A stretch of 64,000 nt of DNA from an uncultured Methanosarcinales archaeon (GTDB lineage: Archaea > Nanobdellota > Nanobdellia > Woesearchaeales > CAZOXR01): the NCBI GenBank assembly GCA_964566535.1, contig CAZMIO010000001.1:1-64000 (forward strand), given 5' to 3'. The notes beneath the pieces were generated by a model. The model saw only the letters and a list, made by a program, of their open reading frames with translations. It was not told where the DNA came from and made no database searches. The position numbers and the translations under genes are program-made. Shown piece by piece: positions 3,406 through 58,304 of the stretch; positions within the stretch are counted from its first letter, which is position 1, and each line of letters begins with the position of its first letter.

Positions 3406-4896
3406 ATGGTAGATTCACAAACACAATTAGTTTCGTATGAAAATGTTCCTGATGGGCACTTTTCCTATAGGGGAGAGACTATTCCTGATTTAGCTATGCC
3501 TTGGAGAGGTATGACTCTTGGTGGCTTTCTTGCGACTCTTCCAGCAGATGATAGGGGCCATAGAGTTGATATAGATTTTGGTAGGGAGTATACAACTGAG
3601 GAAGTGGCAAAACTAGTTGGTAGACATTGGAGTAGAATTAGTCCTCGTATTACTCCTTATATTAATGCAGGGTTAGATGGTGTTAGAACAGAAGTAAGAA
3701 AAAAGTGGTTTACTGGACCAAGGGCTCTTAGCATGTATTTTATTACTGGAGCTTATGATAGTCCAGCTTCTTTAGTTGATGTAGTAGAAACACCTCCAAT
3801 TGCAGTTGCCCAAACAATACCTAGAATGGAAAGTGAAATGGTCTCTTTTGAAGATGCCCCCGAGGGTAAGTTTCGTTATGGTCTAGGACTTAGACATGTG
3901 ATTGATGATAGGAAAGTACAAGGCAAATATCTGTTAAGTGCTCTTATTGCGAGACTTGAACCAGATGCAAGTGAACATAGACCCCTTCAGGTATTGGATT
4001 ATACTCCTGGTTCAGAATATACTTTCAGAGATCTTGCTAAAATCCTTAACGTTCAACCACAAACTGTTAAAAAGCGTACATTGATGGAGCGTAAGAAAAC
4101 AGTTATTCCTGGTTTGACAGTTGGTGCTGGTAGTTTAGAAAGTCAATTAACTGGCTCTGCTGCAGCACAGGTTATAATGGCTTCCCCTAATCTTGTAACT
4201 CAATTAATGGATCCTGAAAATTTTGTTCTTTCAGAGATGCTTGGCTATCAAAGAGCATGGCTAGGAGAACGTGATGGAGGGGCATTCAAACTTCTATCTG
4301 ATTGGGTCCTTGAGACTTATTCTCAACTTGCTCAATCTTTTTTTAGCTCAAAACATGATTCAGATAATGCTTTGCAAGAGGTTCTAATTAAACTTTCAGA
4401 AAAAGACCTTCCGGATATGACTGACCATCAAATGTTTAGGTATGTTAGAGCGATGGTTAAGAATCAATCTTTAGATTTAATAACGGCTCGAAAAAGTCCC
4501 ACAGCCACTGGCTCAACTTTCCAAAAAGGTGCTTTTTGTATTGATAATGATGGGGTAACGGGTGATGATGGAGGGGCTGTTTCCGAAATTGGATGGGAAG
4601 CTTTTGCATATTCTACCGAACAGATTCAACATCTTGATGAGCATGATACTCTTGGACGTATGGGGACAGAGGAATGTACAACTGATCTTAGTGAAGTTGT
4701 TCCGAGGGTTTTATCTACTCTTAGACCAAAAGACCAAGAGATTGTTCAAGCTGTCTTTTATGGTGGGCTTTCTTATCGTAAAGCTGCAGCTCATCTTGGA
4801 TATGGATTGTCGGATATAAAAATAAGTATGCGTAGAGCGTTTGAGGTGTTAAGGTGGGGACCAATGAGAGAACTCTATGAGGAACAGTTAGACTGA
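3406..4896 (+). CDS. ECF sigma-70-like protein (regions 2 and 4) with two N-terminal HTH-containing repeats
   Basis: DNALQEVLIKL...FRYVRAMVKNQSLDLI (sigma2-like); LRPKDQEIVQAVFYGGLSYRKAAAHLG...IKISMRRAFEVLR (sigma4-like). Confidence 0.7.
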   Translation: MVDSQTQLVSYENVPDGHFSYRGETIPDLAMPWRGMTLGGFLATLPADDRGHRVDIDFGREYTTEEVAKLVGRHWSRISPRITPYINAGLDGVRTEVRKKWFTGPRALSMYFITGAYDSPASLVDVVETPPIAVAQTIPRMESEMVSFEDAPEGKFRYGLGLRHVIDDRKVQGKYLLSALIARLEPDASEHRPLQVLDYTPGSEYTFRDLAKILNVQPQTVKKRTLMERKKTVIPGLTVGAGSLESQLTGSAAAQVIMASPNLVTQLMDPENFVLSEMLGYQRAWLGERDGGAFKLLSDWVLETYSQLAQSFFSSKHDSDNALQEVLIKLSEKDLPDMTDHQMFRYVRAMVKNQSLDLITARKSPTATGSTFQKGAFCIDNDGVTGDDGGAVSEIGWEAFAYSTEQIQHLDEHDTLGRMGTEECTTDLSEVVPRVLSTLRPKDQEIVQAVFYGGLSYRKAAAHLGYGLSDIKISMRRAFEVLRWGPMRELYEEQLD

Positions 4897-6448: not shown

Positions 6449-7201
6449 TTACTTTTTAGTTAACGTTTTAACGTATTCTATTAATTCTGTTGGAACTGGT
6501 AATATTATTGTGCTATTCTTTTCGGTTGCAATTTCTGACATTGTCTGAAATAACCTTAATTGTAGTGAAGCTGGTTCTTTTGACAATACTCTCCCAGCTT
6601 CAGATAATTTTACAGATGCTTGTTGTTCTCCTGTTGCCAAGATTACCCTTGCCCTTCTATCTCTTTCTGCTTCTGCCTGGTGAGCCATTGCTCTTTTCAT
6701 TATTTCAGGCAGTTCAATGTCTTTAACTTCAATTTTGGTGACTTTAATGCCCCATGGGTCTGTATCTTTATCAACTATTACTTGGATTTTATTAGAAATT
6801 TCTTCCCTTTTAGATAAAATTCCGTCTAATTCAAACTCTCCAATAATGTGCCTCATTGTTGTTTGTGCTAGTTGTGAAACAGCATAACCAAAATGCTCTA
6901 CTTCAATAATAGCATTCTTAGCATCCATTACTTTGTAATAAAGGACCGCATTTACTTTTAGTGAGACATTGTCTTTAGAAACACATTCTTGAGAGGGTAC
7001 GTCAACTGCTTTTACCCTTATATCGACACGCTCCCATGTTTGAATGATTGGGACAACTAATTTTAATCCAGGTTCCATCACTCCTGAGAATTTACCAAGT
7101 GTAAATTTAACTCCACGTTCGTATTGTTTAACTACTTTTAAACTACTAATGATTATAGCTAATATTAGTATAATTAGTGAATTACCAAATAAAAGAGCCA
7201 T
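6449..7201 (-). CDS. SPFH/stomatin-like (slipin) protein
   Basis: QYERGVKFTLG, AQTTMR, WGIKV, QAEAERDRRA. Confidence 0.93.
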   Translation of the reverse strand: MALLFGNSLIILILAIIISSLKVVKQYERGVKFTLGKFSGVMEPGLKLVVPIIQTWERVDIRVKAVDVPSQECVSKDNVSLKVNAVLYYKVMDAKNAIIEVEHFGYAVSQLAQTTMRHIIGEFELDGILSKREEISNKIQVIVDKDTDPWGIKVTKIEVKDIELPEIMKRAMAHQAEAERDRRARVILATGEQQASVKLSEAGRVLSKEPASLQLRLFQTMSEIATEKNSTIILPVPTELIEYVKTLTKK

Positions 7202-7302
7202 TAATGTATCACCCTGTTTGTTCTGTGGATTATTAATATATAAATATTTGCTTTTGCTATCATAACAATAACTTTTTATATTACTTCTTTATCTTAGTTG
7301 CT

Positions 7303-8478
7303 ATGAAAATAGAAGCTAGTGAGAGGATTAAGGGACTAAGTTCGTATGCTTTTGCGGATGTTGATAATGAAGTTGCAAAGTTGAAGAAGTTAGGTGTTAC
7401 CCCTATAGATTTTGGTGTTGGAGATCCAAAGGAGCCCACTCCTGGTTTGATTAGAAATTATTGTAAGAGGGCTCTTGATAAGAGAAAAGAGTCTGGTTAT
7501 CCATCATATATCGGTTCAAAGGATTTTAGGGAAGAGATTGCTAAATGGACTAAAGAGCGGTTTAATGTTAGTCTTGATTTTGAGAAAGAGATAACTTCTA
7601 GCATTGGAGCTAAAGAGGCAGTATTTAACTTTCCAGAGGCATATGTTAATCCTGGAGATTATGTTTTGATGCCTAATCCTGGTTATCCTCCTTATGAACG
7701 GGGCACGTTATTTGCTGAAGGGCAGCCATTTTTTCTTCCATTGAATGAAGAGAACAATTTCATGCCTAATTTAGAAGAGATTCCAGTTGATATTGTAAAG
7801 AAATCTAAGATATTGTGGATTAATTATCCTAATAATCCTACTGGGGCTGTTGCTAATAAGTCTTTTTTGAAGGAAGTTGTTGATTTTGGACATGATAATG
7901 GCATAGTTATTGCTTCTGATGAATGTTATACTGAACTTTATTTTGATGAGAAGCCAATGTCTATACTTGAAGTGGATAGGGAGGGAGTTGTTGTTATACA
8001 GAGTTTGTCTAAGAGAAGTAACATGACAACTTATAGAGTTGGATGGTTAATGGGGGATGAGAACCTTATTGATGTTTTTAAGAAATTAAAAACTAATGTT
8101 GATTCTGGTACTCCTACTTTTATTCAGGATGCTGCAATTGCGGCTTTAAGTGATGAGAAGCACGTTGAAACTGCTAGGTTAGATTATAAGAAGAAACGGG
8201 ATATTATGGTTGATGCTTTAACTTCTGCTGGATTGGCAGAATGTAGGCCCAAAGCTACGATTTATATCTGGCAGAAGGTTCCTGAGGGTATGAGTTCTGT
8301 TGATTTTGCAAAGAAACTGCTTGATAAAGATATTGGTGTAGTGACCACTCCCGGGTCATGGATTTCGAATACTGTTAATGAAGAGAATCCTGGTGAGGGC
8401 TTTGTTAGATTGGCTTTAGTTCCAACAGTTGCTGAGTGTAAGGGTGCTGCTGAGAAGTTGAAGAATTTGAAGTGTTAG
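7303..8478 (+). CDS. dapL: LL-diaminopimelate aminotransferase-like PLP enzyme
   Basis: GVGDP, NYPNNPTGA, SLSKRSNMTTYRVG, KTNVDSG; next to hom and asd. Confidence 0.8.
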   Translation: MKIEASERIKGLSSYAFADVDNEVAKLKKLGVTPIDFGVGDPKEPTPGLIRNYCKRALDKRKESGYPSYIGSKDFREEIAKWTKERFNVSLDFEKEITSSIGAKEAVFNFPEAYVNPGDYVLMPNPGYPPYERGTLFAEGQPFFLPLNEENNFMPNLEEIPVDIVKKSKILWINYPNNPTGAVANKSFLKEVVDFGHDNGIVIASDECYTELYFDEKPMSILEVDREGVVVIQSLSKRSNMTTYRVGWLMGDENLIDVFKKLKTNVDSGTPTFIQDAAIAALSDEKHVETARLDYKKKRDIMVDALTSAGLAECRPKATIYIWQKVPEGMSSVDFAKKLLDKDIGVVTTPGSWISNTVNEENPGEGFVRLALVPTVAECKGAAEKLKNLKC

Positions 8479-8598
8479 AATTCTACTAATCTATGATTAA
8501 TGGTTAAATGTAGAATTCTAATCATGCTCAAAAATCACCTGAATCGAATTAGTTTCGTTATAAGCATACTGCTCATCTATAATGGGTGATTTTCGACA
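8473..8598 (+). repeat. Double-hairpin palindromic element, copy B
   Basis: TGTTAGAATTCTAC...GTAGAATTCTAA-TCATGC-TCAAAAATCACC...GGTGATTTTCGACA; supplies the dapL stop codon. Confidence 0.8.
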
Positions 8599-8606
8599 TT
8601 TTAATT

Positions 8607-9860
8607 TTACATATCTTCAATTCTTATTAGAATGGGTTTTTCTTTAACTATGTCTAGCTCTTCAATTTCTTTAATCGCTTTGTTTATGTCTTTTTCAATT
8701 GCTTTGTGGGTTAATATAACAATTGGTACTATTTCTTTTTCTAATTCTTTTTGTTGTACTCCTGAAATGCTGATATTGTTGTCCCCTAATACTTTTGAGA
8801 ATTTTGCTAGAACTCCTGGGACGTCTGGGACTTTTAATCTTAAGTAGTATCTTGATTCAATTGAATTTATATCTTTGATGGTTATATCATTGAATGAATT
8901 GTTCAATATTTTGTTGTTGTTAGCAATATCTATTATGTCTCCTATGATGACTGTTGCTGTAGGTAATTGACCTGCGCCTTTGCCGTATAGCATGTTGTCA
9001 GTAATATTTTCTCCGTTGATATATATTGCATTGAATTCATTGATTACTGAGCACAATTCATGTGACTTTGAGATCATTGTTGGATGTACTCTTAGTTCAA
9101 TCTCTCCGTTAAGTTTTTTTCCAATTGCTAAAAGTTTTATCTCATATCCTAATTCATTAGCATATTTTATGTCAAGTTTGCTAAGCTTTGAGATACCTTC
9201 TGTGTGGATTTTATCGTTTATTTTATGGTTGAATGCTAATGATGAAAGGATGGCTAGTTTTTGTGAAGCATCTAGGCCTTCTACATCAAATGTTGGATCT
9301 GGTTCTGCAAAACCTAATTCTTGTGCTTTTTTTAATGCGTCTTCGTAGGACATCCCTTCTTTCATTCTTGTTAGGATGTAGTTGGTTGTTCCGTTTAGGA
9401 TTCCATAGATTGATTTTATTCTTTCTGATGCGAAGCTTTGTTTTAATGATTTTATTATAGGGACACAACCGCCAACTGCTGCTTCGAAGAGTAAGGATAC
9501 ATTATTTTCTTCTGCTGTTTTGAAAAGTTCATTTCCGTGTTTTGCAATAACTGCTTTATTTGCTGTTACAACGTGTTTTTTGCTTTTTAGTGCTTCTTCT
9601 ATTATAGTTCTTGCTGGTTCGTAGCCCCCTACGAGTTCTATTACTATGTCTATGTCTTTGTCGTTAATTATTTCTTTGTAGTCAGTAGTGTGTTTTTCAA
9701 TTAATCCAAGACTTTCTGCCTTATCTTTATGAAGATTACACACCTTTTTGATATTGAGGGCAATTCCTGTTCTTTTCTCAATTAGTTCTGAATTGTTCTT
9801 TAGTATACTCACTACTCCAGAGCCAATTGTTCCCAGTCCTATAATTCCTATATTTGTCAT
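8607..9860 (-). CDS. hom: Homoserine dehydrogenase with C-terminal ACT domain
   Basis: GLGTIGSG, VVTANKA, GILNGTTNYIL, GFAEPDP. Confidence 0.95.
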   Translation of the reverse strand: MTNIGIIGLGTIGSGVVSILKNNSELIEKRTGIALNIKKVCNLHKDKAESLGLIEKHTTDYKEIINDKDIDIVIELVGGYEPARTIIEEALKSKKHVVTANKAVIAKHGNELFKTAEENNVSLLFEAAVGGCVPIIKSLKQSFASERIKSIYGILNGTTNYILTRMKEGMSYEDALKKAQELGFAEPDPTFDVEGLDASQKLAILSSLAFNHKINDKIHTEGISKLSKLDIKYANELGYEIKLLAIGKKLNGEIELRVHPTMISKSHELCSVINEFNAIYINGENITDNMLYGKGAGQLPTATVIIGDIIDIANNNKILNNSFNDITIKDINSIESRYYLRLKVPDVPGVLAKFSKVLGDNNISISGVQQKELEKEIVPIVILTHKAIEKDINKAIKEIEELDIVKEKPILIRIEDM

Positions 9861-47617: not shown

Positions 47618-47701
47618 AGCCTTCGGCGAGAATTGAACTCGCGACCTATACCTGTTTGGAAGATATACCAAGGTATCGCTCTACCACTGAGCCACGAAGG
47701 C
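47618..47701 (-). tRNA. tRNA-Thr(GGU) with 12-nt intron (47654-47665)
   Basis: GCCTTCG/CGAAGGC, ATACC-TTGGTA[intron]A-GGTAT, TTGG/CCAA BHB helix. Confidence 0.93.
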
Positions 47702-53667: not shown

Positions 53668-53698
53668 AAATATAAATTTGAAGGCTTTTTTCTTTTTT

Positions 53699-55768
53699 AT
53701 GCTACTAAAATCACTAAAATTGAACAATATTAGGTCTTATGTTAACCAGGTTATTGATTTTCCTACTGGTTCATTGCTGTTATCTGGTGATATTGGTTGT
53801 GGTAAGTCTAGTATTTTATTAGCTATTGAGTTTGTGTTGTTTGGTTCTCGTAGGAAGCATTTGTCTGGGAGTTCTTTATTGAGGCATGGTGCTAAGCAAG
53901 GTGAAGTTGAGTTGGCATTTGAGGTTGATGGGAAGGAGATTATTATTAAGCGGGTTTTGAAGCGAGGGAAGAAGGATGTTTCTCAGGAGACTGGGTTTAT
54001 TGTTATTAATGGGGTTAAGAAGGAAGCTACTGCTATTGAGCTTAAGTCTATAATATTTGATCTTATGGGTTATCCGTCTGATTTGGTTACTAAGTCTCGT
54101 GATTTGATCTATCGCTATACTGTTTATACTGCTCAGGAAGATATGAAGCAGATATTGTTAGAGGATAAGGATCTTCGTTTGGACACTTTACGAAAGGCAT
54201 TTAATATTGATAAGTACAAGAAGATTAAGGAGAATTCTTTGATTTTTGTTCGTGAGTTGAAGGAGAAGCGGAAGGAAGGGGAGGGGAAGATTTCTGACTT
54301 GGAGGAGAAGAAGAAAGGGATTGAGTTGAAAAATGAAGAAATCACTAAATTAGAAAAAAATTCATTGGAAATAAAACCTAAGTTGGATAAGAGTAAAGAT
54401 GAGTTGAAATTAAAGAAAGAAAATTTGTTGAAAATTGAAGAAGAAATTAAAAATTTCAATGAATTAAAAAAAGAATTAGAATTAAATGAACTTAAATTAA
54501 AAAATATTCTTGAACAACGAAAATCCAATAAAGAAAATATTGAAAGGTTTGAGGAACAGATTAAAGAGCTTGAGAAAGATACTGGGATTAAGGATGAGGT
54601 TGATGTTGAGGGGATTTTAGGGAATATTGGGGAGAAGGAGAAGCAGATAACTTTAATGGAGACTACGATAAAGGAGATTTCTGTGAAGGTGCATGAGTTT
54701 ATGGCGCGGAAGAAATATTCTGGTGAGATTAAGGAGAAGATTTTGAAATTAGATGAATGTCCTACTTGTGAGCAGAATGTTGATGGTTCTTATAAGGAGA
54801 AGGTTGTTTTGCGAGAGGATGGGAAACTAAAAGAGCTTGAGGAGAACTTGAAAACCCATGATGGGCAGCACAAGGAAGCTGAGAGTAAGATATTGTTGTT
54901 GAGGAAAGAACGTGATGAACTTAGGAAGAAGGAGAATGAGGTTAAGTTGATTAAGTTGAAACTGAAGAATCTTGCGGAGAAGGTTAAGGAGAAGGAGGAT
55001 CTATTGTTGTTGCAGGATAAGATAAAGAAAGAGGTTGGCGGAATAAATGTTAAGAAAAGTGAACTTAATGGAAAGATTGAGTTGTTGAAGGATGTTGAGG
55101 GGGAGTTTGTTAGGTTGAGGAAAGAGGTTGATGATGGGATGGTGGAGGAGAGGAAGTTAGAGTTAGAGTTTAATTCTGTTGCTAAGGAGAAGGAGACTAT
55201 TTTGAAGATTGTTGAGATGTTAGGGGCGGAGATTAAGGAGAAGGAAGATGTAAAGAAAGGTCTCGTTTATTTATCTCAGATGCAGAATTGGTTGGAAGAA
55301 CATTTTGTTAATTTAATGGGGACTATTGAGAAGCATGTTATGCTTAGTATCTATCATGAATTTAATGAACACTTTCAGCAGTGGTTTAATATTTTGATTG
55401 AGGATGAAGGGATAAATGTGAAGTTGGATGAGGAGTTTACTCCTTTTATTGAGCAGAATGGTTATGAAACTTCTATTGCTAATCTGTCTGGTGGTGAACG
55501 GACTTCGGTTGCACTTGCTTATAGGTTGGCTTTGAATAAGGTCATTAATGACATTATAGGAGATATAAAAACAAAAGATATATTAATTTTAGATGAACCT
55601 ACAGATGGATTTAGTACTGAGCAACTTGACAAGGTTAGAGATGTGCTTGATGAGTTGAATTTGAAGCAGACGATTATTGTTTCGCATGAGTCAAAAATAG
55701 AAGGGTTTGTTGATAATGTGATTAGGGTTAGTAAAGAAGAGCATGTAAGTAATATTATGGGGCCTTAG
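53699..55768 (+). CDS. rad50: Rad50/SbcC-like SMC ATPase
   Basis: GDIGCGKSS, CPTC zinc hook, LSGGE, LDEPT. Confidence 0.88.
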   Translation: MLLKSLKLNNIRSYVNQVIDFPTGSLLLSGDIGCGKSSILLAIEFVLFGSRRKHLSGSSLLRHGAKQGEVELAFEVDGKEIIIKRVLKRGKKDVSQETGFIVINGVKKEATAIELKSIIFDLMGYPSDLVTKSRDLIYRYTVYTAQEDMKQILLEDKDLRLDTLRKAFNIDKYKKIKENSLIFVRELKEKRKEGEGKISDLEEKKKGIELKNEEITKLEKNSLEIKPKLDKSKDELKLKKENLLKIEEEIKNFNELKKELELNELKLKNILEQRKSNKENIERFEEQIKELEKDTGIKDEVDVEGILGNIGEKEKQITLMETTIKEISVKVHEFMARKKYSGEIKEKILKLDECPTCEQNVDGSYKEKVVLREDGKLKELEENLKTHDGQHKEAESKILLLRKERDELRKKENEVKLIKLKLKNLAEKVKEKEDLLLLQDKIKKEVGGINVKKSELNGKIELLKDVEGEFVRLRKEVDDGMVEERKLELEFNSVAKEKETILKIVEMLGAEIKEKEDVKKGLVYLSQMQNWLEEHFVNLMGTIEKHVMLSIYHEFNEHFQQWFNILIEDEGINVKLDEEFTPFIEQNGYETSIANLSGGERTSVALAYRLALNKVINDIIGDIKTKDILILDEPTDGFSTEQLDKVRDVLDELNLKQTIIVSHESKIEGFVDNVIRVSKEEHVSNIMGP

Positions 55769-55785
55769 TGTAGCTTGGACTATCA
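55759..55785 (+). pseudogene. Orphan tRNA 5' fragment (Pro/Trp-like, positions 1-24)
   Basis: GGGGCCT-TA-GTGT-AGCTTGGACTA-TCA; shares GGGGC and TAGCTTGG with the tRNA at 56641. Confidence 0.75.
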
Positions 55786-55798
55786 AAAAATTTATAAA
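55786..55798 (+). promoter_or_regulatory. BRE-TATA promoter of the endonuclease gene
   Basis: AAAAATTTATAAA; TATA begins 32 nt before the ATG at 55823. Confidence 0.65.
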
Positions 55799-55822
55799 TT
55801 TGATCTCCAAAATTGAAATTGT

Positions 55823-56650
55823 ATGAGATACAAAATTAATTTTTTAATAAGGAAACTACTAATGCAACATTATAAAAAGCTATTGAATACACCAATTAAA
55901 ACTAATTTAAAGAACCTGATATATGCAAACAAATCGATTTCTGAAAGTCAATTGGATTTATTAGTTAAAATTAGTAAAACTTCTAAAAAGGTATTGAAAC
56001 TAACAGAGATAGAATTCCATCCAGAAAGAAATTTTGGAAAATATATTAGGCCTATTAAAATCCAATTTGAGGGAAAGGTCCCAGATCTTGCAGAATTTAT
56101 TGGTATAATGCTTGGCGATGGAAATATTTATAGAAATGCTATAAGAATAACCATAAGCAGTGAAGAACAGGAGTATAAAAAATATATAGAAAAACTATTT
56201 AAGAAATTATTTGGAATAGAACCCAAAGTGTATCATAGCAAAGTATCTAAGTCACTATCCATATATGTATATAGTAAAAAACTAAGAATACTTCTTGAAC
56301 AACACGGTTTGGGTCAAGGCAATAAAGTTAGGAGGAATGTTCGAGTACCTAAATGGATTAAGACCAACAAAATTTTCTCAAGGAATTGTATAAGGGGGAT
56401 GATTGATACAGATGGTTGTGCGCACTACCATAAACGGGATAAACAACTATATGTTTCTTTTCACAATAGGGCATCTAATCTACTTAGAGACGTACAAAAA
56501 ATGGCAAAGTATTTTAACCTAAAATTTATCCTAAATACTCAATATAGCATTACCTTGTATAAAAAGGATGAAGTTAGAAGATATATTAAACAGATAGGCT
56601 TTTCAAATGAAAGGCACCTATCTAAAGCAAAAAAGTATTTGGGGCTGTGA
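55823..56650 (+). CDS. Free-standing double-motif LAGLIDADG homing endonuclease
   Basis: LAEFIGIMLGDG and CIRGMIDTDG; no intein splice residues; stop codon lies inside tRNA-Pro. Confidence 0.9.
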   Translation: MRYKINFLIRKLLMQHYKKLLNTPIKTNLKNLIYANKSISESQLDLLVKISKTSKKVLKLTEIEFHPERNFGKYIRPIKIQFEGKVPDLAEFIGIMLGDGNIYRNAIRITISSEEQEYKKYIEKLFKKLFGIEPKVYHSKVSKSLSIYVYSKKLRILLEQHGLGQGNKVRRNVRVPKWIKTNKIFSRNCIRGMIDTDGCAHYHKRDKQLYVSFHNRASNLLRDVQKMAKYFNLKFILNTQYSITLYKKDEVRRYIKQIGFSNERHLSKAKKYLGL

Positions 56651-56759
56651 TCTAGCTTGGTTAAGATACTAGGTCGGGGTCGTTGAAGTAGAGCTGCCAC
56701 ATAGCTCTAATAATGAGATGGACACCTAGTTATCCCCAGTTCAAATCTGGGCAGCCCCA
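56641..56759 (+). tRNA. tRNA-Pro (probably GGG) with 44-nt intron (56680-56723)
   Basis: GGGGCTG/CAGCCCC, ATCT/AGAT D-stem, CTAGG/CCTAG, CCCAG-TTCAAAT-CTGGG; atypical C33. Confidence 0.8.
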
Positions 56760-56808
56760 CTTTTTATTTTTCGATATGTTTATTAATGATTTATTCGTTC
56801 TTTGGGTC

Positions 56809-57063
56809 ATGGATTTTATACTTATAATTGGTTTAGCAGCTGCAACATTGACAACATCTGCTTTTTTCCCGCAGGCTGTTAGGATTTGGAAGTTGAAGGA
56901 AGCTAAGGATATTTCTTTGATTACTTTTATTGTTCTTTCTTTAGGTGTTTTTCTGTGGTTGGTGTATGGAATTCTTAAAAGTGATATTGCGATTATACTT
57001 GCGAATGCTGTTACTTTAGTTCTTGCTTTGACAATCCTTTATTTTAAGGTTAAGTATAAGTAA
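56809..57063 (+). CDS. SemiSWEET/PQ-loop transporter
   Basis: TTSAFFPQ, KDIS, LWLVYG, ILAN; start set downstream of the tRNA. Confidence 0.92.
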   Translation: MDFILIIGLAAATLTTSAFFPQAVRIWKLKEAKDISLITFIVLSLGVFLWLVYGILKSDIAIILANAVTLVLALTILYFKVKYK

Positions 57064-57104
57064 TTAACAAAATAATTATAAACAAAAGGTTTATTCTATA
57101 GGTT

Positions 57105-58304
57105 ATGCAAATAGGAGTTGTTGGAAAACCGAACGTTGGAAAATCTACGCTGTTTAAAGCACTGACTTTAGCAGATGTATATATAGCGAATTATCCGTTT
57201 GCAACGATAAAACCTAATTCTGGTGTTGGTTATGTTAAGGTTGATTGTGCTGACCAATTCTTTAAGGTTAAATGTGATCCTAGGGTTGGGTTTTGTGTTG
57301 ATAATAAGAGGTTTGTCCCAATTGAAGTTATTGATGTTGCAGGATTAGTTCCTGGAGCTCACGAAGGAAAAGGAATGGGGAATCAGTTTCTTGATGATTT
57401 GAATCAGGCGGATGCTTTAATTCATGTTATAGATGTTTCAGGAAGTACTGATGAAGGTGGAAAGCCAGTTGATGCTGGCAGTTATGATCCTGCGAATGAT
57501 ATTAAGTTTTTAGAAGAGGAGTTAGACCATTGGTACCATAGGATAATCAAGAAAGGATGGGATAAGTTTGCTCGTGAAGTTCAGCAGACACATCAAAAGA
57601 TACAGGTTGCGTTGACTAAGCAGCTGTCTGGTGTTGGTGTTAGTGAAGAGATAGTTATTGAGGCTGTAAAGAAAGTTGGACTTGATCCTGAGAAAGTTAT
57701 TGATTGGAAGGAAGAGGATCTGATGAAGCTTTCTTCTGAGTTTAGGAAGATTACAAAACCGATGGTCATAGCATGCAATAAGATTGATGTTTCTACAGGT
57801 AAGGATAATTTTGAGAGATTGAAGGAAGAGTTTCCTGACTATAAGTTGGTTGCTTGTAGTGCTGAATCTGAACTTGCTTTGAAAGAGGCTCAAAAGACAG
57901 AGCTCGTTAAGTATATTCCTGGTGAGGCGGCGTTTGAGATAAGGGATGAACAGAATCTTAGCGATAAACAGAAGGGCGCTTTAGGATTTATTAAGGAGAA
58001 TATTTTAGATAAGTTTGGTTCGACTGGTGCTCAGGATGTTATTGATACTGCTGTTTTTGAAGTTTTAGGATTAATGCCCATATTTCCTGGTGGAGTTAGT
58101 AAGCTTGCTGATCAGGATGGTAATGTACTTCCTGATTGTTTTTTGCTTGATGAGGGTTCTACTGCGCTAGATTTTGCATTTAAGATACACTCTGATTTGG
58201 GTGAGAGTTTTATTAGAGCTGTAGATGTGAAGACGAAGAGAACTGTTGGTAAGGATCATGTCTTGAAGAGTGGAGATGTGGTTGAGATTATTGCTGATAA
58301 ATAG
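57105..58304 (+). CDS. Obg-family YchF/Ygr210-like NTPase with TGS domain
   Basis: GKPNVGKST, ANYPFAT, DVAGLV, NKID. Confidence 0.93.
   Translation: MQIGVVGKPNVGKSTLFKALTLADVYIANYPFATIKPNSGVGYVKVDCADQFFKVKCDPRVGFCVDNKRFVPIEVIDVAGLVPGAHEGKGMGNQFLDDLNQADALIHVIDVSGSTDEGGKPVDAGSYDPANDIKFLEEELDHWYHRIIKKGWDKFAREVQQTHQKIQVALTKQLSGVGVSEEIVIEAVKKVGLDPEKVIDWKEEDLMKLSSEFRKITKPMVIACNKIDVSTGKDNFERLKEEFPDYKLVACSAESELALKEAQKTELVKYIPGEAAFEIRDEQNLSDKQKGALGFIKENILDKFGSTGAQDVIDTAVFEVLGLMPIFPGGVSKLADQDGNVLPDCFLLDEGSTALDFAFKIHSDLGESFIRAVDVKTKRTVGKDHVLKSGDVVEIIADK

Follow-up and report, generated by a model that had tools for sequence, protein, structure and literature searches.

LAGLIDADG genes usually reside in introns or inteins, and both free-standing homing endonucleases and integrative elements that restore the tRNA gene they enter are known kinds of mobile DNA. 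The free-standing SegB of phage T4, a GIY-YIG enzyme, is encoded with its own promoter in a tRNA gene cluster, between intact genes, and is believed to spread through cleavage of alleles that lack its gene, with co-conversion of the markers on either side. Here, I analysed a stretch of 64,000 nt (hereafter the window; contig C1:1-64000 of a 1.45-Mb archaeal assembly, G000, that is 91% complete) in which a tRNA-Pro gene beside rad50 is interrupted by a gene for a LAGLIDADG protein and is complete again behind it. This arrangement is probably a free-standing LAGLIDADG homing-endonuclease cassette that lodged in the rad50-adjacent tRNA-Pro gene of a Woesearchaeota-type archaeon, with cleavage, immunity and co-transcription proposed from the sequence.

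Like SegB, the window endonuclease is encoded outside introns and inteins, at tRNA genes, and behind a putative promoter of its own. It differs from SegB in being a LAGLIDADG enzyme, in residing on a cellular chromosome, and in lying inside a tRNA gene that the cassette appears to rebuild, while the target gene of the phage enzyme is not split and no replacement part is carried. With I-DmoI, I-Tsp061I, PI-PfuI and the TliVMA intein endonuclease the window protein shares the fold and the two catalytic motifs. Their targets are highly conserved RNA or housekeeping genes, as the predicted tRNA-Pro target of the window protein would be. Those enzymes sit in introns or inteins that are spliced out as RNA or protein, whereas the host gene in the window would be kept by a duplication of part of the gene at the DNA level; the window protein furthermore has an extra N-terminal helical domain of ~60 aa.

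The nearest precedent, as far as the accessible text of its description goes, is the tRNA-Thr(GGU) locus of Caldiarchaeum subterraneum, which shows the same order of parts: a fragment of the tRNA 5' end comes first, then an insert that extends as far as tRNA position 27, and last a rebuilt tRNA with an extra intron (Sugahara 2012, PMC3293823). According to the same text, that insert measures 1.9 kb and contains a repeated 545-bp region, and an 813-bp open reading frame (ORF) lies on the same strand immediately upstream of the rebuilt tRNA; a machine-learning classifier labelled this ORF a putative recombinase, and the authors interpreted the event as integration of the pNOB8 type. The accessible text of the paper never uses the word LAGLIDADG, while the ORF in the window is demonstrably LAGLIDADG and overlaps its tRNA. 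As in the SSV1/pNOB8-type elements portrayed there, a carried tRNA part re-forms an intact gene in the window and a partial direct repeat marks the other border (PMC3293823). Elements of that type use tyrosine recombinases and span many kb, and in most cases it is the 3' part that they duplicate, the core being identical; the window element is 0.9 kb long, has no recombinase, and its duplicated part is the 5' part, which has diverged.

Full-text literature searches of main articles returned no published description of this family or of a LAGLIDADG gene that splits and rebuilds a cellular tRNA gene. A paper on rRNA insertions in the candidate phyla radiation (CPR) made no mention of tRNA, and the accessible part of a 2026 census of Asgard tRNA introns reports no general route by which these introns arrive.

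Layout of the tRNA-Pro locus

All parts of the locus lie on the + strand, in the order rad50, 27-nt tRNA-Pro stub, promoter, LAGLIDADG ORF, intron-bearing tRNA-Pro, and SemiSWEET gene:

53678..55768, + strand: rad50/SbcC-type ATPase gene (ORF list; Pfam AAA_23, SMC_N, SbcC_Walker_B)
55759..55785, + strand: displaced tRNA-Pro 5' stub, comprising the acceptor strand, the 5' strand of the D stem, the D loop and three bases of the 3' strand of the D stem (~positions 1-24)
55786..55798, + strand: putative archaeal-type cassette promoter, consisting of an A run resembling a B recognition element (BRE) and the TATA box TTTATAAA at 55791-55798
55823..56650, + strand: two-motif LAGLIDADG endonuclease gene, 275 aa (ORF list; Pfam LAGLIDADG_3)
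56641..56668, + strand: replacement tRNA 5' part, positions 1-26, with the rare D stem ATCT/AGAT with A10; overlaps the last 10 nt of the ORF
56641..56759, + strand: rebuilt complete tRNA-Pro gene (ARAGORN with introns allowed; manual parse; fold test)
56776..57063, + strand: SemiSWEET-type (MtN3/PQ-loop) membrane protein gene (Pfam MtN3_slv 4.5e-10), the right-hand neighbour outside the cassette

The stub, GGGGCCTTAGTGTAGCTTGGACTATCA at 55759-55785, reads as acceptor strand, U8, D stem, D loop and part of the returning D-stem strand, and breaks off directly into AAAAA followed by TTTATAAA, which is the immediate passage from a tRNA fragment into a BRE and TATA box that the original prediction had described. 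Its other structural claims for the locus also held: the double-motif LAGLIDADG ORF (LAGLIDADG_3, 7.5e-12) ends as TTG GGG CTG TGA inside an intact tRNA-Pro, with the TGA (56648-56650) on tRNA positions 8-10, and rad50 runs into the stub in the same manner with its last three sense codons and stop (ATG GGG CCT TAG), the TAG at 55766-55768 occupying stub positions 8-10 in the same frame as the ORF stop in the tRNA. The ATG at 55823 sits 24 nt 3' of the TATA box, and judging from this spacing the endonuclease mRNA is probably leaderless.

The tRNA-Pro gene at 56641-56759 was missed by default ARAGORN and by the Rfam tRNA model, because a 44-nt intron (~56680-56723) adjoins the anticodon, and was found by ARAGORN once introns were allowed. 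Its fold beat 200/200 shuffles (z = -3.8). The cloverleaf drawn by ARAGORN, a 93-nt mature form with a mismatched anticodon stem and a long extra arm, was rejected as not credible, and a manual parse was used instead. This parse gives a 7-bp Watson-Crick acceptor stem with the 3' strand at 56752-56758, a 4-bp D stem ATCT/AGAT, a 5-bp anticodon stem CTAGG/CCTAG (56669-56673 / 56725-56729) with a loop that starts TCGGGG, a 5-nt variable loop, the T arm CCCAG-TTCAAAT-CTGGG (56735-56751), and A73 at 56759. The register of the anticodon is ambiguous, as it reads GGG in the canonical 5-bp stem with an unusual C33 and CGG in the strained ARAGORN model; in either register the anticodon is one for proline. 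A class of intron-bearing tRNA-Pro genes with the loop TCGGGG(T/A) comprises the window gene (56669-56729) and those at loci L004, L110, L112, L115 and L119, and a single register allows both a stem of 5 bp and a nucleotide at position 26, which makes position 33 a C instead of a U; in the order's intron-less tRNA-Pro(CGG) genes the reading is TTCGGGG. Introns are present in many tRNAs of this genome, and standard tools recover only ~27-30. One further example lies in the window at 47618-47701 (-), where default ARAGORN gives a tRNA with an undetermined anticodon and a search with introns allowed gives tRNA-Thr(GGU) with a 12-nt intron.

Stub and rebuilt tRNA are identical at 16/27 positions. 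The claim that the two have diverged stands, and the earlier count of about ten differences is corrected to 11. Even so, the match of the stub to the first 20 nt of the rebuilt tRNA exceeded 199/200 shuffles, and in an alignment with the tRNA-Pro genes of relatives the stub fits the 5' consensus of tRNA-Pro in the order. A search with its first 20 nt (two free positions, at most 1 mismatch; these tallies take in some unpublished genomes) found the stub type GGGGCNNTAGTGTAGCTTGG in 227 of the 401 genomes of the order, and the reversed control in 0. All 29 published loci of this type that were inspected (29/29) are complete tRNA-Pro genes (UGG, GGG or CGG) with no cassette after them, most of them with a TATA-like box upstream. 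An intact tRNA that begins like the stub had been predicted, and such a gene exists in G312, where a tRNA-Pro starts with the exact first 20 nt of the stub.

The possibility that the stub is half of a trans-spliced tRNA, with a matching AGGCCCC 3' half elsewhere, had been raised beforehand, and it was followed up together with the broader notion that the stub is a functional exon of a split or giant-intron tRNA, spliced across the ORF by the bulge-helix-bulge endonuclease. Archaeal rRNA introns do carry LAGLIDADG genes, split tRNAs occur in some DPANN relatives, and the upstream piece keeps a TATA-like box in most relatives. The stub itself, though, lies without a promoter inside the coding end of rad50, and its acceptor strand pairs with the local 3' strand at 5/7 positions with two adjacent mismatches, against 7/7 Watson-Crick pairs between the downstream copy and 56752-56758. 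None of the 56 AGGCCCC sites listed in the genome (assembly 91% complete) is preceded by a T arm, which leaves the stub without a complementary 3' half in this assembly, and no bulge-helix-bulge formed when the two junctions were co-folded. Taken alone, the gene downstream is already complete, and acceptor pairs are lost in 3 of 8 overlap-type loci with a significant upstream copy (see below). Because of the 5/7 pairing and the missing T-arm site and bulge-helix-bulge, the stub is not taken as a working half, and a functional exon is hardly credible; the stub reads as dead and the downstream copy as the live one. Nor does the ORF have an ordinary intron or intein as its home: nothing is missing from the downstream tRNA, the start codon and the putative promoter belong to the ORF itself, and no Rfam intron family was found in 55000-57500 at E up to 10.

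The ORF had further been described as A-rich and unlike its neighbours. Locally, its GC content and GC skew are indeed below those of the neighbouring genes, and its GC of 0.295 falls at the 1.7th percentile of 862 genome ORFs. A content and the skews are not outliers genome-wide, and composition as a sign of foreign origin was consequently set aside, GC being the sole outlier on that scale.

The endonuclease

The ORF matches Pfam LAGLIDADG_3 with 45.8 bits (cut-off 22.5). Motif 1 ends in IMLGDG (D99) and motif 2 in MIDTDG (D197); among 26 homologues G98-D99-G100 and D195-T196-G198 are invariant, and D197 is at least 90% conserved and otherwise E. A PDB sequence search matched intein endonuclease domains (5e-7), and both motifs align with those of the TliVMA intein endonuclease. 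An AlphaFold2 (AF2) model built on the 26 homologues (predicted local distance difference test, pLDDT, 92.5; predicted template modelling score, pTM, 0.79) begins with ~60 aa that form a helical domain and continues with an ill-defined linker at 61-85, followed by a two-domain LAGLIDADG core with both motifs and the pseudo-symmetric alpha-beta-beta-alpha-beta-beta-alpha arrangement. The top Foldseek matches to this model were the TliVMA intein endonuclease (7qsu), I-Tsp061I (2dch), PI-PfuI (1dq3) and I-DmoI (2vs7), all at probability 1.00. From sequence and model, the protein is a predicted monomeric two-motif LAGLIDADG homing endonuclease for which cleavage is expected; its candidate targets are the GTGT-type tRNA-Pro genes of the 227 genomes mentioned above.

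A WhiA-like regulator had been named as an outcome that would overturn this reading. WhiA is not known to have the catalytic acids, whereas both are kept here, the extra domain is N-terminal with no C-terminal helix-turn-helix (HTH), and the closest structures are true homing endonucleases. More generally, the protein might be a domesticated non-cleaving factor, either WhiA-like or a maturase-like helper of pre-tRNA, with the stub as the by-product of an old duplication. Such a role would suit a family that is very common (167/401 genomes, several copies each) and almost always found beside tRNA genes with extra introns, and it would suit a protein under selection, as follows from the dN/dS (ratio of non-synonymous to synonymous substitution rates) of 0.17 (dS 0.68) against the enzyme of a second carrier genome, G027; WhiA and bI3 maturase (rank 33) are also among the fold matches. 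It sits poorly with the catalytic acids, which are D or E in 26/26 homologues, with active endonucleases as the best matches, with a patchy subfamily, with the absence of the cassette from the same site in relatives, with sharp homology boundaries in a different neighbourhood, and with the low GC percentile of the gene. Overall, I regard a domesticated factor as quite improbable.

Empty sites in relatives

Orthologues of rad50 were found in 36/41 relatives. Relatives without the ORF had been expected to carry a tRNA in the rad50 interval, and four of them have a tRNA-Pro at the rad50 side: G038, G009 and G320 show an intact tRNA-Pro directly after rad50, and G001, which belongs to the same family as the window genome, has it in inverted orientation. 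Because these ORF-less relatives carry the gene there, a tRNA-Pro beside rad50 is taken as the old state, to which the ORF was added. The TCGGGG loop and the following intron of the window tRNA resemble the rad50-side tRNA-Pro of G038, and the 3' strand CAGCCCC of the window is native in G038 and G001 as well.

In G038, 16 nt of the tRNA-Pro 3' end recur as a direct repeat 251 nt downstream (L004:3688-3703, 3939-3954; 15/16 identical), which looks like the scar that another small insertion left at this end of the gene. This repeat lends some colour to the explanation that the window locus is the scar of an integrase-type element in a tRNA gene, as was proposed for the Caldiarchaeum tRNA-Thr, with the LAGLIDADG gene as a passenger or remnant; direct repeats of tRNA parts around an insert and an ORF beside a rebuilt tRNA are typical of integrated archaeal elements, as the accessible text of Sugahara 2012 (PMC3293823) has it. 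The insert in the window, however, is ~0.9 kb long and its sole ORF is LAGLIDADG, with no integrase or other recombinase between the repeats. These repeats are 5' parts that are alike at 16/27 positions and have no identical att core, and the fusion of ORF and tRNA recurs with many tRNA species, the ORF always being LAGLIDADG. An integrase scar is consequently very improbable.

A second carrier

The endonuclease subfamily occurs in 3/401 genomes from three families, namely the window genome, G027 (78% identity over the full length) and G347 (43%), and all three enzymes are located at tRNA-Pro genes. G027 belongs to another family than the window genome, and in place of rad50 and SemiSWEET its cassette is flanked by genes for CDP-archaeol synthase and sigma-70. 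BLASTN between the window and G027 returned one block (83% over 927 nt) that covers window 55759-56681 only, from the first base of the stub to ~tRNA position 41, with no homology beyond 56681. The cassette is absent from the rad50-side site in four relatives and present with sharp ends in G027. The stub of G027 is identical to that of the window at 25/27 positions, and in both genomes it gives way to the same promoter after the same base. The putative promoter stretch (55786-55798) shows 1 difference, the first 20 nt of the rebuilt tRNA are identical, and the enzymes share 215/275 residues while 60 differ. Their dN/dS of 0.17 shows that the enzyme is under purifying selection. Stub and promoter together differ at 3 of ~51 positions, compared with a proportion of synonymous differences (pS) of 0.45 in the ORF. 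This conservation fits both a stub that serves as the left homology arm of the element and stubs that were each made independently from a conserved tRNA.

The Obg-like GTPase encoded next door is 65% identical to that of G027 and 61% to that of the same-family G001, and rad50 is ~49% identical to that of G027. Because the enzymes are 78% identical against 65% for the GTPase and ~49% for rad50, the split between the two cassette copies is younger than that between their hosts. A G027-like variant whose alignment starts exactly at 55759 was found in the same marine metagenome run as the window sequence.

What travels was narrowed down by the 3' parts of the two rebuilt tRNAs. In the window, this part has an intron in the anticodon loop and the T stem CCCAG, whereas in G027 it has an intron in the T loop and the T stem CGGAG, like the rad50-side tRNA-Pro(GGG) of G001. 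The 3' strand of G027, CGGCCCC, pairs perfectly with its own stub GGGGCCG and with one G-U with the cassette copy GGGGCTG; because of this perfect fit, the 3' part of G027 would be resident and only positions 1 to ~26 imported. In the window, the 3' strand CAGCCCC pairs perfectly with the cassette copy, and the stub GGGGCCT looks like that of G027 and not like the sequences of G038 and G001. Two histories of the window stub both fit these data: co-conversion from a donor similar to G027 may have brought it in, or a single compensating change may have arisen in the 3' strand.

The same comparison bears on the explanation that the cassette brought a complete foreign tRNA-Pro and that the resident gene was lost except for its first 27 nt. 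Considered within the window alone, it is attractive, given that the stub pairs with the present 3' strand at 5/7 positions and the cassette copy at 7/7, and that stub and tRNA differ at 11/27. Across carriers it fares worse: homology stops near tRNA position 41, the 3' parts differ in stems and intron site, the 3' strand of G027 is perfect with its own stub, the TCGGGG loop and intron of the window are like those of the G038 gene, and CAGCCCC is also native in G038 and G001. Import of a whole tRNA is unlikely on this account. The original prediction of a mobile promoter-endonuclease-tRNA unit therefore survives in part: the unit recurs in G027, while the end of homology at ~position 41 speaks against the carriage of a whole tRNA. 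The travelling unit would rather consist of the promoter, the ORF and tRNA positions 1 to ~26, perhaps with the stub, and not clearly of a whole tRNA.

The sigma-70 gene next to the G027 cassette (contig C71, L033:341-1234 (-)) is complete and of bacterial type, with regions 1.2, 2, 3 and 4 above Pfam cut-offs. Its contig also has the CDP-archaeol synthase gene, which places a bacterial-type sigma factor in an archaeal bin.

The replacement D arm

The cassette copy has the D stem ATCT/AGAT (A10-U25, C12-G23), as opposed to GTGT/TCAC in the stub type. This A10 type was found in 7/401 genomes: the window genome G000, G027, G217, G147, G274, G320 and the unpublished G207. In G217, the A10 gene is an intron-less, promoter-bearing tRNA-Pro(UGG) without an endonuclease gene. 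In G320 (contig C4, ~7169-9388; L147), 26 nt separate rad50 from an intron-less tRNA-Pro(GGG) that has an A10 D arm but no endonuclease gene, and this tRNA gene could be either the source type of the replacement piece or an allele left after loss of the cassette. A rare replacement and a common target would fit the needs of a homing element, as a correlation only.

Proposed mechanism

In the proposed sequence of events, the enzyme would cut cassette-free GTGT-type tRNA-Pro genes near the junction of D arm and anticodon stem (positions 24-27), and the break would be repaired from a cassette-bearing copy, with the stub and the remainder of the tRNA acting as left and right homology arms, respectively. 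The homology arms would lie within the tRNA, and the unit could therefore enter tRNA-Pro genes in any neighbourhood. The cassette (~55786-56668) would in this way have been inserted near tRNA position 24-27, leaving the resident 5' part upstream as a dead 27-nt stub, and the replacement copy would join the remaining 3' part to form a complete tRNA-Pro. The rebuilt gene would escape re-cutting through its rare, differently paired D arm. The tRNA would be co-transcribed with the ORF from the cassette promoter, a route assumed because no convincing TATA box precedes the tRNA, and RNase P together with the splicing endonuclease would release it; the assembly contains a gene for an archaeal RNase P RNA (113.6 bits). 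Cleavage by RNase P would also remove the stop codon of the ORF from the mRNA, which could, as a speculation, keep enzyme levels low.

Several observations weigh against this scheme. On the side of mobility, the dS of 0.68 speaks for a transfer that would not be recent, the subfamily occurs in just three genomes, so that mobility may not be ongoing, and contigs from 4 marine metagenome runs, which drop rare variants, contained cassette-bearing alleles only and no empty allele. On the side of function, WhiA appears at Foldseek rank 10 with 11% identity. The A10 D arm appears to be a borrowed natural variant, native in the cassette-free G217 and G320, and is as such no proof of immunity. No convincing TATA box was found 25-35 nt before the rebuilt tRNA, and none of the 22 sequencing runs listed as holding the stretch is an RNA run. 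The history of the left junction is awkward as well: the stub may have been imported or mutated, because its acceptor GGGGCCT misfits the local 3' strand whereas the rad50-side tRNAs of G038 and G001 have GGGGCTG, and the spacer and promoter that lie between rad50 and the tRNA in G038 are absent from the window.

The origin of tRNA fragmentation in archaea, that is, of orphan halves, split genes and introns at odd positions, is a long-standing question. The window locus offers a concrete route at the DNA level, in which an endonuclease would break a tRNA gene, rebuild it from a carried piece and leave a fragment behind, and recurrence of the cassette layout at tRNA genes of related archaea may explain tRNA gene fragments. 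It would also show how a homing endonuclease can occupy an essential RNA gene without an intron, and such elements are a possible source of natural enzymes against very conserved 20-bp tRNA sequences. For annotation, the practical consequence is that standard tRNA finders miss the rebuilt gene, while a gene caller would extend rad50 and the endonuclease into tRNA sequence.

The wider LAGLIDADG family at tRNA genes

Homologues of the wider family, roughly 330 in the order, occur in 167/401 genomes, often several per genome. The survey suggested by the original prediction, for LAGLIDADG ORFs with their stop in a tRNA 5' end, was productive: of the best 30 loci, 17 have the ORF stop within the 5' end of a tRNA on the same strand, 6 have a tRNA 20-42 nt after the stop, and 2 have an opposite-strand tRNA that adjoins the ORF. 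The stops of the overlap type mostly fall on tRNA positions 8-10 or 13-15, at which U8 and A14 give rise to a stop codon. A strict ungapped repeat search missed diverged stubs, including that of the window, and a regular expression for the D loop was too narrow, and both were replaced by a Hamming/shuffle test that is informative for upstream copies only, since downstream 7/7 pairing was a search condition. By this test, 8/17 overlap loci have an upstream copy of the first 20 nt of the tRNA that beats at least 96% of shuffles, with acceptor pairs lost in 3 of the 8. L061, where the tRNA follows 20 nt after the stop, has a significant upstream copy by the same criteria (4/7 pairs), which brings the total to 9/30. 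Boxes of the type TTTATAAA or TTTAAATA stand directly 3' of the upstream tRNA piece in L036, L037, L041 and L042.

Another 40 loci (ranks 31-70, skipping unpublished genomes and two inteins) were assessed with ARAGORN and by reading of the ends, which makes the counts approximate. The ORF end lies over a tRNA 5' end in ~5 of them, over the 3' end of an opposite-strand tRNA in ~15, and just before a tRNA in ~7; 6 are mirror-image, 4 have no visible tRNA (2 of these beside an rpl11-like gene), and 3 are cut by contig ends. ARAGORN alone supports a tRNA at 20/30 and 16/40 loci. In most of the 70 loci examined, the family gene adjoins a tRNA gene or fragment.

It is quite possible, though I would stop short of calling it probable, that the window cassette belongs to a large undescribed DPANN superfamily that homes into tRNA genes without introns, each subfamily being tied to one tRNA species. 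If this were true, each element would carry a replacement tRNA piece, either a 5' piece after the ORF or, in mirror-image loci, a 3' piece before it, and such elements would be a main source of orphan tRNA fragments. Selection for uncuttable alleles would then drive introns at odd positions and unusual stems, and the stub would be a working left homology arm, which would explain 2/27 differences in the stub against a pS of 0.45.

The mirror-image loci are L069, L071, L074, L078, L087 and L095, where a tRNA 3' fragment (T arm and acceptor strand) follows directly after the stop; in L069, L074 and L087, ARAGORN gives a complete tRNA-Thr upstream of the ORF. It looks as if these cassettes carry a replacement 3' part at their front. 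In a convergent class (L064, L065, L068, L076, L081-L083, L085, L088-L090, L096, L098-L100, L052, L056 and L058), the 3' ends overlap and the TGA that stops the ORF falls within the reverse-complemented T loop (GGATTTGAACC) of an opposite-strand tRNA.

The window genome has a second copy of the family (contig C2:125445-126038; 226 aa, 27% identical; L002:1480-2365, C2:125424-126310), whose final 36 nt are shared with the 5' end of a tRNA that has several introns and the acceptor GCCGAGG/CCTCGGC. By manual parse this tRNA is Ser-like, and the Cys call of ARAGORN is doubtful. A repeat of the tRNA 3' end (…CAAATCAACCCCTCGGCG) follows ~120 nt downstream, and a tRNA-Met lies upstream on the other strand.

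In one subfamily, the motif (C)CACTGGACATG stands 20-60 nt upstream of the TATA box in several genomes (L002:1405-1425, L044, L050, L055, L056, L058 and L061); possible roles are those of an operator or a half-site of the target, or the motif may be a remnant of something. In L055, L070 and L097, the ORF ends without a tRNA and the next gene starts like ribosomal protein L11 (…GGxAxxxPPLGPALGP), and this subfamily may be aimed at a protein gene.

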